Assembly: GCA_965113315.1 (NCBI GenBank)
Contig: OZ220369.1
Length of the DNA: 64,000 nucleotides
Reading direction: 5' to 3' (one strand)
DNA from: Podarcis vaucheri
Lineage: Eukaryota
Shown: positions 797-59,500 of the stretch, one piece after another
Numbering within the stretch: position 1 is the first letter of the stretch
Layout of the letters: the number at the start of each line of letters is the position of its first letter
Position numbers and translations under genes: made by a program
Notes under the pieces: generated by a model
What the model was told of the DNA's origin: nothing
The model's database searches: none
Seen by the model: the letters and a program-made list of their open reading frames with translations, nothing else

Positions 797-3700
797 GTGA
801 GTGAGAGCTTCTATTGCTGCTGGGACAGTGAAAAGAGCATGTCATCATCACCACTGAAAAAAGAAAATGTATGTGATGTAATGGGGAAAGATTTAGACAT
901 CCACATAGTGACATTTTGCTGCCACCTCATGGTGAAAATCTATAAGGAACTAGATCAGGAGAAAGCTTATACCAAGAACAAACTTAGTTGGTCTCTAAGG
1001 TGCTAGTGGACATTTTTTTAAAAAAATTATATATTTCAACCGCGTCAGACCAACACGACTACCTACCTGAATCTAGATCAGGAGAGTTTAGGTTCCACAT
1101 GTGTTGGAATTGTGGACCAGTGCATGTTTTCTAAATCTCAAAAATACCTGGCTTGACAAAATCCTTTTGACCCATAATTGTGTTGCATGCCATCTCCTGC
1201 AAATTTTGTTCTCCAGCATGAAGCAGCTGCAGAAGTTGTAGTGGAAATACATTATCTTGACTTTTCCCATTGGACAAAGGCTTAAGCCCTGACCACCCAT
1301 TGCTTGTGCACAGGCCCTCACTATGTTGACAGAGGAATGAGGCTTCACTCTTGGCTTGTCTGATATTGCTGATCTTTTTTGCATGTTATGTTCAGGGGTC
1401 TGTGGTGAAATTCCAATGCACAGTGTTTGATCAATGCACATGACAGCATTGGTAAGAAGTCACATAAAGGGTGTTGAGGCTGGAGGGACAGAGTGAGCAA
1501 TAGAAAGAAGAGAGATACAAGTACATTAATAATGTGATAAATTAAAACAAAAACAATTTCTTACCCTGCCTGACAGGATCAGTATAAAGCGTTCAAAATA
1601 AGCTCATTGAAACAGATTACAGGTTCTGGAGTTAGATTTATTTATTTTTAACCCCAGAGCAAATGTATAGATATATACTGTCAGTTGCAGTAAAGGATTA
1701 AAAAAGTCACAGACACCCCTGCCATCTGCAGCAGCAAAGATGAGAGAGTGGCATTCCTTATTGGGCTTAAGGATTTCTACCATTTGGCCAACCCTCTGTT
1801 CCTCCTTGAAAATAAAAGGGTCTGTGCAATTTCTGAAGATGTACTATTTGTACCCGACATCTTTCCTTTCTGAAGCCCTTTGAAGGATATGGCCTTTGAG
1901 CAAGCTGTCTATAGCCCTGATTCCTTTTCAGGAGGGAGTCAGCAAAGTGTGATCAAGAATAAGGAAGCTGTGGGAGAGCTAGACAACAACCCTGTCTCAA
2001 AAGCCATTGCGCGTCACCTTGGCATTGATATATCTCCAGAAGGACGGGCTGCCAGGAACCGCAGGGGCATTGCCATCATCATCCATGGTGCTCCCCTTAC
2101 AGGTACAGAGACCACCTCAGAGCAGCAGGGCTACATCTGTGGTGACTGTATACTCCCAGACGGCATCTGAGTACCACCATGTGCTCTGAGATCTCACTGT
2201 CATCCTCAGTTTTTTGCAGCTCTCTTCTGAATATTTTTTAGTTTGTGAACAACTTTTTTGGGAGCTGAAGGACTCGAGGCATTTTCTTGCCAAGGCTGAT
2301 GCTAACCGTGGGCTAAGCTAGAGGTGCGCTTAATGCAGAGCAGGCATAGTGACCTGCCTTGTTCTTCCTTGATGAATGGCGGGTGCCAGGGAGAGGGGAT
2401 TTGCCCTGGGAATGCAGCCATGCTCCTGTTTTAGAGAGTCTGTTGAGAACTCCCGTTAGAACTCTCCCCAGACCCCACCCATCCATCACTGCTGGCCCTT
2501 CTGGTTTACTCCCCCCCCCCATGTTTTTGTCTTACTGGACTATGTCCTTGAATTATTGCTTCTCTGGAAGAGAGGGGTAAGTGAGAGAGTATGTAGAAAC
2601 TGGCTTACTGTTCACATTCATTGTTCCACCCACTTTTGCTTCCGGCCCCACCCCCCACTGCCATGTGGCCCTCAGAAAGTTGTCCAGAAGAGAATGTGGC
2701 CCTTAGACTGAAAAAGCCCCTCCATCCCAGATATAAAGGGATGCCAATAAATGATGGATGGTGAAAGTGTGTGTGTGTTTACCAATACCTTTGTCTCTGA
2801 TTTCTCTAGGAAAGTCCAGTGCAGCCATCACCCTTGCCAAACACTACAGTGCTGCTTGCTTATCCATTGATTCTGTGGTCTTGGAAGCCATCTCTGATGG
2901 GAACACTTCAGCAGGGCTTCGTGCTCGTGAACTCTGCATCCGAGCTGCCATTGAACTGGCACAACGGGAAAATGAAGAGGGGGGTAAGTGGGGGTTGGGG
3001 GGGTCTTCAACATCATGGCAAGTACCCATCTGGCCTTTGCCTGTGCTCCCCATAGCCCATCCTCAGTGAACTTTTACTCTCTTCTCAGGACCAGCTTGAC
3101 TCTCACCCCAGCAGGGTATATCCAGTGGTGGGGTAGTAGTTGGAGCATTGGAATAGGACTTGGGAAACAAGGGATCAAATCCACACTCGGCTACTTAAAT
3201 CCTCACTCAGCTTCAGCTCACCTTGGACCAGTCATGATCTCTCAGCCTAACCTACCTTGCAGTGTTGTTGTGGTAATTAAATGAGATGGGGGAAGAACCA
3301 CGTATGCCTTCTTGAGTTCTTTGGAGGAAAAGATGGGATAGAAATGTAACAATTAAATAGCAAATACTCTCCCATAGGGAAACTACTTGAAGGTATGTCT
3401 TGCCTAGCGGCAAATTAGGAAAACCTTAATGTTATCATGAAGGCTGTGGAGACCTGAGCTGACCCAACAGTGACCTTGGTGTGAATGTTCTGCAACCCCA
3501 CATCTGAGAGGGCCTCTAGCAGCTCAGTCAGGGAGGCTGTTGTGAGCTGCACTAACTACATGCCCAGTCTGACCTTTTGGCCCAAAACTAGATACAGGCC
3601 CCCAAAACCTGGCTCTGGGTAAAGAGGCCTAGTGGAAGAGAGCACAGTGCTCCCTCCCCTTGCTTATGCTGACACTGCAATGGGTAGCCAGGCAGACATA

Positions 3701-56519: not shown

Positions 56520-59500
56520 GTGAGCGAGGGGAACGGGCTGCCTTCCATTCACACTCTTGGGCCGCTGAGGGGGCCCTTCTCGCACCGCACTGGCAGCAGC
56601 AGCCGCATTAGTAGTGCCCGGCAGGGTCTTTCCCCGCCCTGCCTTGAGGTGCCATTGGCGGGGCTTCAGCCTCTGAGCCAAAGCCCTTTCCTCAGCGCCC
56701 GCCTCCCCTTGCTGAAGGGCTGGCCCGTTGGCTGCTCCTGCTCATCCTGTCACCGAAGGGCCTCTTCTTTCTCTTGGAGCAGGCCTGAGCGGGGGCGGGA
56801 GTGCTGGTTTAGAGCGGGATCTACAAACAGCAGCTCTGAGGAAGTTGCCTCTCTTCTCTCACTCCTGTATTTCTCCGCTCTCACCACATACCAGGCATAG
56901 AGATAAAGCCCTGAAATAGGTGACACAGAGGCAGGCTGCTGTTCGTATGGTGGAGGGGCCTTATCCAGCCACAGAGAAGACCAAGCTTTTCTCCCTGCAC
57001 GCACCTTGCAAAACTACTTGTCAGCTTGAGTGGGCAAAACTGGGCAAGGTGGACCAGTTTTCTGGCTCCATTTCATTTGTTCATAGATGATTCATTTGTG
57101 GGCATACAGGGTTGCTAATGGCCACCTAAATTAAAAGAAATATATTTCTCATGTTAAACTGGAGCCAGACATGGACCTGGTGAGACAGGATACAGCCTTC
57201 TTGTTCTCCTGTTTTTAGGCTGGTGCGTGAATTTGTGGCTCAGAACAGCACAGCTCAGATCAAGCATGTGATTCAGATTCTTTCTCAGGAGTTTGCACTT
57301 TCCCAGCACCCACATAGTCGAAAAGGGGGGCTTATTGGCCTGGCAGCCTGCTCCATTGCTCTTGGGAAGGTAGGTGGTATTGCTGTTTCTTTGACCCCAT
57401 AGGAGAACATGAGCCCTTGTCCTCTGTTAGAAGAGAGAGGCTGTCTGTTCTAACCTCACATTTGTTCCAGAGGAGGAAGACATTCTGTGATGGGTGACTT
57501 TGGAAATCTAAAAAATGGATTCCAAATTAGTTACAAAATTATTTATCACAATCTCCAAAAATAAGCTTTATGAATAATTAAGCTCTAATGCTGATTTAGT
57601 GCAACGTTAATAAATATCTCCTAGTAACATCTTCATTTATAGGGAAGCATTTAGTCAAGCTGTGTGCTGCTTCCAGCTGCCTTTGACCAATTTCCTGCCA
57701 TTTTCCCTGGCAAAATTTGGGCTTATTCACACATTATTTGGCTAATAAGGAACTCCAAGTTTTGAGCCACCTTTTGTTTATTTTGGCATTGTCGGAAGGG
57801 AACAGGTTCCCTTCCCTCCCATCAGCGGCCAGAAAAGGCAAGGGAGATGGGACTTCTTGTTAGCAGAGTGACAGCTCTTCCTACATTCCTGAAAAGAGGC
57901 TGAATTCTGGCCCATCTCCTCTCACTGTTTAAAATGGACTTTCTTGCCTTTGCTGCATAGTAAGGAGCTTTTGCTCTAGGTTTGGGGTGCCCATATTTTT
58001 TGGCTTTGAGGACACATTTGGAAACTTAAGAAACTGTTGTGGGACCAACAAATGTTCATTTCACAGAAGAATCCCCCCCTTGCCCCCAATCCACATCCCA
58101 AAGACCAACACCAACCCAAAACAGGCACAAAACAAAACAAAACAGGAAACACCCCCCACAACAACTCGCTCCCATCTCATTTTTAAAAAATGGACAAGGG
58201 ATGGAGACTTTAGCACCTGTGTGCCTGAGGAATCTGTGTTGCCCACAAGCATGATGTTGGTGACTCCAGCTGTAGTCAGTGCCTGGGCATTCTGTTCTTA
58301 GCCAGGTTTGCTGGCCCTATTCTAAGCCCCCACCCCCACCCCGGTGCACTTGCAAGAAAGCAGGGGCTCCACTTTGGTGTAGCCACTGCTTAAGTCCATG
58401 GCTCCGCGCCCCCTCTTATCCTTGTGTTTTGATTTGCAGGACTCTGGTCTGTACTTGAAGGAGCTCATTGAGCCTGTGCTGACATGCTTCAATGATGCTG
58501 ACAGCCGCTTGCGGTACTACGCCTGTGAGGCCCTATACAACATCGTGAAGGTGGCCAGAGGCTCTGTCCTCCCCCACTTCAAAGTGCTGTTTGATGGCTT
58601 GAGCAAGGTAATGGGTTTTCTTGACAGGCCAAGAATGTCTCACACATGTAAGAGTTACAGATAGGTAGCCGTGTTGGTCTGCCATAGTCAAAATAAAAAA
58701 ATTCCTTCCAGTAGCACCTTAAAGACCAACTAAGTTAGTTCTTGGTATACCAAGAACTAACTTAGTTGGTCTTTAAGGTGCTACTGGAAGGAATTTTTTT
58801 ATTTTCACACATGTAAGGTCTTTGATGTCCTGTATATTCCTGCTCTGGGGCTCTTTGGAGGTGTGGGTGCTGATTCTGGACAACTGGGGCTGAGAGATGG
58901 CACTGAGGATTTCCATAAGCATCCCCTAGAGGAAAATGTTCCTCCTACATTGATGCCTTCACTCCAGTTCATCCCCCTAATACTAACATGGCTGCAGAAG
59001 AGCTCTGGGAACCTGTCAGAGAGTCTGGTCCAGGGGTCCATGAATGTGCTTTCCAGATCGCTCATGGCAACCATAGCTCGGATGGTGGTGTGCACCTGTG
59101 GGTGGGGCTTGCCTCTGGCTTTGCACACTTTCTGGGCATTTCTGGAGCTCAGTTTATTGTCAGACAGGAGGTGGTGTCCCTGTCCGATTGCTGGGAGTCA
59201 ATAGCCAACAGAAAATAGTTGTCTCTTGGTCAAGTCACTACTAGTGTCTTATGTACATGGCTCAGCCACACCACATACTCTCTCTGTTTTTCCTAGCTTG
59301 CTGCAGATCCAGACCCAAATGTCAAAAGTGGATCTGAACTCCTGGACCGGCTTCTGAAGGTACAGTTCTTCCTGCTGACAGCAGCTCATGATGTGCCGGG
59401 GATCGGTTACAGATGGAGGGATGCATATTTCCAGCATTTGTCTTGGGGTGTTGAATAAGGCAAAGAACCTAGGAATTTGCTTGGCTGATTTCAGGTATCA

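Follow-up and report, generated by a model that had tools for sequence, protein, structure and literature searches.

A 153-bp insertion in an intron of VAC14 consists of two short ends of an abundant Penelope-like element (PLE), joined head to head. The explanation we favour, with a probability of roughly 0.6, is that its two arms were primed from both strands of the target at two internal start sites, on an RNA that in this family is usually uncut, and were joined through the AT that they share. The preliminary description of this DNA had read the same palindrome as the product of a cDNA that ran to the end of a ribozyme-cleaved RNA and folded back there. It named the correct ribozyme and the correct bond, and to that extent it is supported; its mechanism for the family was drawn from a junction that is rare.

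The insertion lies in the window analysed here, that is, the whole 64-kb stretch of DNA. We number the element with the A of ATACC as +1, the first base after the predicted hammerhead cut. The features that first drew attention to the insertion, namely the palindrome, a target-site duplication given as 12-13 bp and an axis on the predicted cut, are all real, and the duplication measures 13 bp (Table 1). The palindrome is perfect and has its axis between 58747 and 58748. A palindrome with arms of this length has a chance expectation of about 1e-30, and the runner-up among perfect palindromes in the window has arms of 10 bp only. The whole insertion is made up of one stub of 96 bp and one of 59 bp, is bracketed by the 13-bp direct repeat, and contains neither an ORF nor a ribozyme core, of which it retains just the 3' strand of helix I. 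Base 58805 is common to the palindrome and the right copy of the duplication.

Table 1. Features of the focal insertion and of related sequences in the window
Feature	Position	Strand	Remark
Left target-site duplication, 13 bp	58640..58652	+	Single copy at the empty site in organisms B and C
Long arm, element +1..+96, including the 37-bp tail 58653-58689	58653..58748	-	
Short arm, element +1..+59, terminating in a T-rich run, without tail	58747..58805	+	
Centre, AT in both arms, the first two bases past the predicted hammerhead cut	58747..58748		Cut located from the core in full copies
Perfect palindrome, 58-bp arms	58690..58805		
Right target-site duplication	58805..58817	+	
VAC14 host exon	58440..58607	+	Pfam PF12755 Vac14_Fab1_bd, E 5.7e-21; GT after 58607
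Older non-inverted stub of a related subfamily, start -8..-6, own 12-13-bp duplication	950..1085	+	

The insertion is real and recent. It sits 45 bp inside the intron that follows the VAC14 exon, and the empty site expected in relatives was found: contigs of two other organisms continue from 58639 directly to 58805, with one copy of the duplication. Both insertion junctions are matched without differences by contigs of the run that contains 99% of the words of the stretch and may be the one behind the assembly. The perfect arms and the duplication suggest that the focal copy is young. Among the runs listed, no RNA data set contains the focal stretch.

We identified the element from a different copy (locus L009/L199), in which a reverse transcriptase (RT) and then a GIY-YIG domain are encoded in one frame upstream of the same end, as expected for the PLE that had been proposed; the focal stub has neither. 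The RT matches PF00078 with an E-value of 1.4e-6 and 28.7 bits, slightly below the curated cut-off of 29.6, and the GIY-YIG domain matches PF01541 with an E-value of 1.6e-5 in the frame of the RT, with two stops in that frame. A cysteine-rich, CxxC-type linker (C-x4-C-x2-CC-H) precedes the GIY-YIG domain, and such a linker is a criterion of the Neptune and Nematis clades (PMC8557442; here and below, this paper, PMC3846280, PMC4209133 and PMC11167929 are cited for the accessible parts of their text). The family thus appears to be an endonuclease-positive PLE of the Neptune/Nematis type, a name for which "Neptune" is suggested by the linker and the vertebrate host.

The family is large. Copies were found by sequence patterns and not by similarity search with the long arm; in this way the genome yielded at least 14,640 exact matches to the +1..+25 motif and, by pattern search, at least 3,110 inverted pairs whose centre gap does not exceed 120. 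Six copies whose flanks are identical (L186-L191, at 93-99 Mb of G000:C26) represent a single insertion in a duplicated segment or a carrier repeat, and at L180-L181 and L163 the element has re-inserted in tandem and nested form, starting again at +1.

Full copies carry, upstream of ATACC, the GTAT-CUGANGA-helix II-GAAAGCU(C/U) core that had been predicted for them. The core runs from a helix I strand at -34..-31 through CUGAAGA, one extra A and a self-complementary helix II (-22..-9) to GAAA, GC, U and a C or U at -1, and AUAC closes helix I. By the numbering of PMC4209133, the predicted cut falls on the bond before +1, in agreement with the earlier placement of the junction at ATACC. As judged from its layout, the motif fits a minimal type I hammerhead, for which cleavage is predicted. 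Its palindromic 15.2-16.2 word is AGCU, which would serve a predicted dimeric helix III, although cofolding of two copies favoured pairing through helix II instead of the AGCU dimer. In the predicted fold helix I (4 bp) and helix II were formed, but no better than in shuffled sequences (z -0.10). An Rfam scan of the window, which is without a whole hammerhead core, gave no match. The loop of helix II also holds an ATG (L072:1529-1558), which opens just nine codons.

The older stub near position 961 had been cited as showing the bases upstream of ATACC. The string in question, GAAAGCTT, is present there (961-968), but the copy itself begins at this point, at -8..-6 and inside its own duplication of 12-13 bp (950-962 and 1073-1085). 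The first base of this stub is thus the 3' base of helix II; nine of the 218 family arms described below begin at -8/-7, a possible pause site.

A sharp peak of breakpoints at ATACC, which the preliminary description had expected, is absent. We aligned 109 inverted pairs (218 arms), all within the first 31 Mb of one contig. Thirty-three of the pairs came from the first 93 of 100 listed +1..+25 matches, with pair L052 left out, and 76 were loci from numbers 24-100 in the list of inverted pairs, for which a gap limit excludes long arms. Starts at -38..-32 account for 109 of the 218 arms (42 at -34 and 33 at -36), while 13 arms begin upstream of this range, 4 fall at -1..+3 and a single one begins at +1. 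In the 33 pairs that were not subject to the narrow gap limit, this range takes 29 of 66 arms, 11 arms begin upstream of it and none at +1; likewise, in the set of 28 mostly single-armed copies 11 have their start in this range and none at +1. Over the whole genome, -36 is the start of 1,571 copies (after two non-element letters) and +1 that of 41, a difference of about 26-fold after correction for pattern catch. We inspected 30 of these 41 starts. In 19 rows (14 events) helix I complementarity makes an opposite arm from -34 overlap ATAC; another 9 rows (8 events) represent junctions of other kinds, and the remaining 2 are explained by point changes or a small deletion. The first of these classes is a recurrent join in its own right: across L166-L194, a -34 arm joins a +1 arm through four helix I bases and thereby imitates a start at the cut.

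The perfect palindrome centres tell a similar story, as their number scales with the length of the self-complementary word. We counted 186 at helix II (a 14-bp word), 11 at AGCT (4-6 bp) and 8 at the predicted cut (2 bp), one of which sits in a complex insertion; these 8 compare with the 3,110 inverted pairs counted in all. At other 2-bp words there were 4 (TA at +2/+3), 3 (CG at -9/-8) and 2 (TA at +12/+13). The places inspected numbered 37 for the cut, AGCT and TA +2/+3, 26 for CG -9/-8 and 9 for TA +12/+13. Because starts at -38..-32 dominate, no peak is seen at ATACC and the centres follow self-complementary words, most templates held the whole ribozyme, uncut. Two further features of the junctions may be mentioned here. 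A very short centre at +13..+16 is common (13 among the first 50 of 190 places) and coincides with an imperfect hairpin just 3' of the cut, and many junctions contain locally templated repeats of the ribozyme region, 5-50 nt long, as if they had been repeatedly re-primed.

The main edge at -38..-32 is likely the run-off at a capped RNA 5' end, with a start at about -37..-34, so that the transcript would begin either with the first helix I base or two to three nucleotides before it. A TATA box, TATATAGA, lies at -67, and TCAGT, with its A at -37, follows 30 nt downstream, which is the usual spacing of TATA box and initiator. An extra G precedes 25 of the 41 arms that start at -34 (T being excluded by sorting), and we take this G to be what a cap would leave; a T precedes 28 of the 44 arms that start at about -36. 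Reads of a related species display this -34/-36 edge too, in the form of loose ends of inserted copies. RNA reads on a full pLTR copy, from about 6-12% of each of four runs (two studies, one related species), showed no accumulation of molecule starts at either the cut or the inferred start; these libraries are fragmented and most of the reads enter the flanks, which makes this evidence neither way. With a start at the first base of helix I (L072:1508-1512, and family-wide), cleavage would take off a capped leader of only about 35 nt. We also considered that the -36/-35 edge might be a splice acceptor (AG/TG, as in D. virilis). This is disfavoured, since 44 arms share no upstream exon, and is also opposed by the duplications that adjoin the element directly in L008, L013 and L080.

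How, then, do the inversions form? In the alignment, 105 of the 109 pairs combine a long with a short arm, and 83 of the 109 have a 12-16-bp duplication (the script found none in 16). The 3' ends of the family group at +90..+96 and +52..+67. The set of 28 mostly single-armed copies includes twelve that terminate at the short site, which is therefore a start site in its own right. In 41 of the 105 pairs the short arm extends at least 5 nt further upstream while the tail is found on the long arm only, and so neither arm is a plain copy of the other; in 25 of these 41 pairs the insert at the junction is no longer than 5 nt. The long arm extends further upstream in 21 of the 105, and the arms end within 4 nt of each other in 43. 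Of 100 informative pairs, 99 have the same subfamily letter at +38 in both arms, which suggests one RNA or one source locus, although folding back would predict the same. As a separate observation, the more complete arm is the short one in 41 pairs and the long one in 21 (p 0.015), which would be expected if two enzymes copied one RNA and the rear one displaced the front cDNA.

We propose that both 3' ends of a 13-nt staggered cut would prime cDNA synthesis, at about +96 and at about +59, on one RNA or on RNAs from one source. The usual template would be an uncut transcript from about -37..-34, with the hammerhead at its extreme 5' end. The two cDNAs would then be trimmed and joined, and where a self-complementary word was used a perfect palindrome would result. 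In the focal copy, both arms would have lost all sequence upstream of +1 and would have been joined through AT, likely not at the end of a ribozyme-cut RNA. Several points weigh against this explanation: junctions at the cut are in excess over those at other 2-bp words, the shared subfamily letter would equally follow from fold-back, the 41 asymmetric pairs could also have arisen if a long hairpin lost sequence on one side, the RNA start is inferred from DNA, and the sample of pairs is limited to 31 Mb of one contig and in part by the gap limit.

The first of these points bears on the closest competitor, in which priming is two-ended as well but the template is hammerhead-cut RNA. Both cDNAs would have run off at +1 and annealed through their terminal AT, and the focal copy would be one of the few per thousand that document cleavage in vivo. 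We regard this as possible, although the odds are against it. The exact centre recurs at eight independent loci with differing flanks, six of which have a 12-15-bp shared flank word. In seven of the eight, the letter at +38 is the one linked to C at -1, and with this C the AT alone is the self-complementary word; beyond the eight, there are two blunt +1/+1 joins in the C-variant subfamily, and at three further junctions both arms start at +1 with short inserts between them. In addition, the PAc hammerhead cleaves with the protein bound (PMC11167929). The local excess is 2-3-fold. Perfect centres at the cut number 8 versus 3 and 2 at the distant 2-bp words (p 0.035, or 0.066 with 7 when the complex insertion is dropped) and 8 versus 4, 3 and 2 at all three (p 0.040, or 0.080), and near-symmetric junctions (gap 0-6) number 19 versus 9 and 8 (p 0.012); a comparison with two controls only gives p 0.09-0.15. 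Single arms at +1 outside the helix I class number 8 to 22, versus 12 at +4 and 10 at -4, which is about 1-3 times the controls, with p ranging from 0.49 to 0.0003 depending on the rows counted.

The excess is therefore a hint, as the numbers are small, the test is post hoc, there are just three control words and the anchors are unequal in length. Moreover, the four TA +2/+3 centres and the blunt joins at +12 and +14 (two each) arise without a cut, helix I complementarity explains 19 of the 30 inspected +1 starts (14 events) with no cut needed, and a pause at the ribozyme junction could yield the same excess. If the excess is real, about half of the cut-site centres derive from cut RNA, and a few per thousand insertions, perhaps including the focal copy, may have copied cleaved RNA. 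Extended to the family, this gives a reading that we put forward only tentatively, namely that its junctions read out the 5' ends of germ-line templates: about half at the capped start, where the hammerhead has its first base, and a few in every thousand, the focal copy included, at the cut on both arms.

Fold-back at the cut, in which a cDNA reaches the 5' end of a cleaved RNA, turns back on itself exactly there and is copied into the second arm, is improbable for the focal copy and largely refuted as the general route to inversion. It would account for the symmetry and identical arms of the focal copy and for the shared subfamily letter, and self-priming has been proposed for such palindromes (PMC3846280). 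However, the family has no peak at +1, and a copy cannot hold upstream sequence that its first strand lacks, as 41 of the 105 pairs do; fold-back also leaves unexplained why the second arm ends at a site used by single-armed copies.

It is less probable still that the focal copy was originally a longer inverted pair, with arms to about -35, whose centre was later lost symmetrically as a cruciform. Long palindromes are unstable, and the centre is unbridged in a second sample of organism A too, none of whose contigs spans it. Against this, thousands of inverted pairs with long centres persist, the focal copy looks young, and the same centre occurs at eight loci. Finally, that the palindrome is an assembly or library artefact can practically be dismissed: none of the contigs listed crosses its centre, but contigs match both junctions, the duplication is single at the empty site, the family tail distinguishes the two arms, and seven further loci have an identical centre.

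Two-strand priming on a usually uncut RNA thus remains our preferred reading. The data indicate that the template is normally uncut RNA and speak for priming from both DNA strands; a single palindrome adds little on its own, and as a sign of in vivo ribozyme cutting the focal one is at best a weak hint. If the cut-RNA class is genuine, it would be genomic evidence that the minimal PLE hammerhead cleaves in vivo, removing the capped leader of about 35 nt, and that cut RNA is still insertable by two-ended priming. With its thousands of young inversions, this family allows both in vivo cutting and the route of inversion to be tested from DNA alone.

The layout of the insertion is already published for endonuclease-positive (EN+) PLEs. 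Inverted-pLTR insertions such as those of Pen2a_Av from Adineta vaga and others (PMC3846280, PMC8557442) have the same head-to-head, 5'-truncated pLTRs with a palindrome at the junction, and EN+ insertions also share the one-sided tail of 30-40 bp (37 bp in the focal copy), the target duplication and, in A. vaga pLTRs, a TATA box with an initiator-like motif (PMC3846280). Unlike the A. vaga-type insertions (PMC3846280), the entire focal insert is two stubs. In their accessible text, PMC3846280 and PMC8557442 favour self-priming on an antisense template and do not map the junctions against a ribozyme or an RNA start; our literature search, outside which lay subscription journals and older Penelope papers, found no study that does so for PLEs. 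The accessible text of PMC4209133 gives no in vivo evidence for PLE hammerhead cleavage, and that of PMC11167929 reports no RNA reads at the cut and no validation of later insertion steps.

The predicted ribozyme closely resembles the minimal type I hammerheads of metazoan PLEs described by Cervera and De la Pena in 2014 (PMC4209133): the core, the extra base between 9 and 10.1, the G10.1-C11.1 pair, the 4-bp helix I and the palindromic 15.2-16.2 word requiring a dimer are all the same. An intron of D. virilis extends up to the 5' end of helix I (PMC4209133), whereas we found no spliced exon there in the family described here. A further close parallel is PAc (Poseidon_Ac) of Anolis carolinensis, studied by Frangieh et al. 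in 2024, whose protein nicks and extends both strands and whose pLTR carries a hammerhead, as does that of the present family (PMC11167929). In PAc, two internal start sites bound the tail, mostly uncut RNA is used and cleavage is not needed (PMC11167929). The accessible text of that study treats no inverted insertions. The present family differs from PAc in the cysteine-rich linker ahead of its GIY-YIG domain, which is of the Neptune/Nematis type, and in the nine-codon reading frame opened by the helix II ATG.
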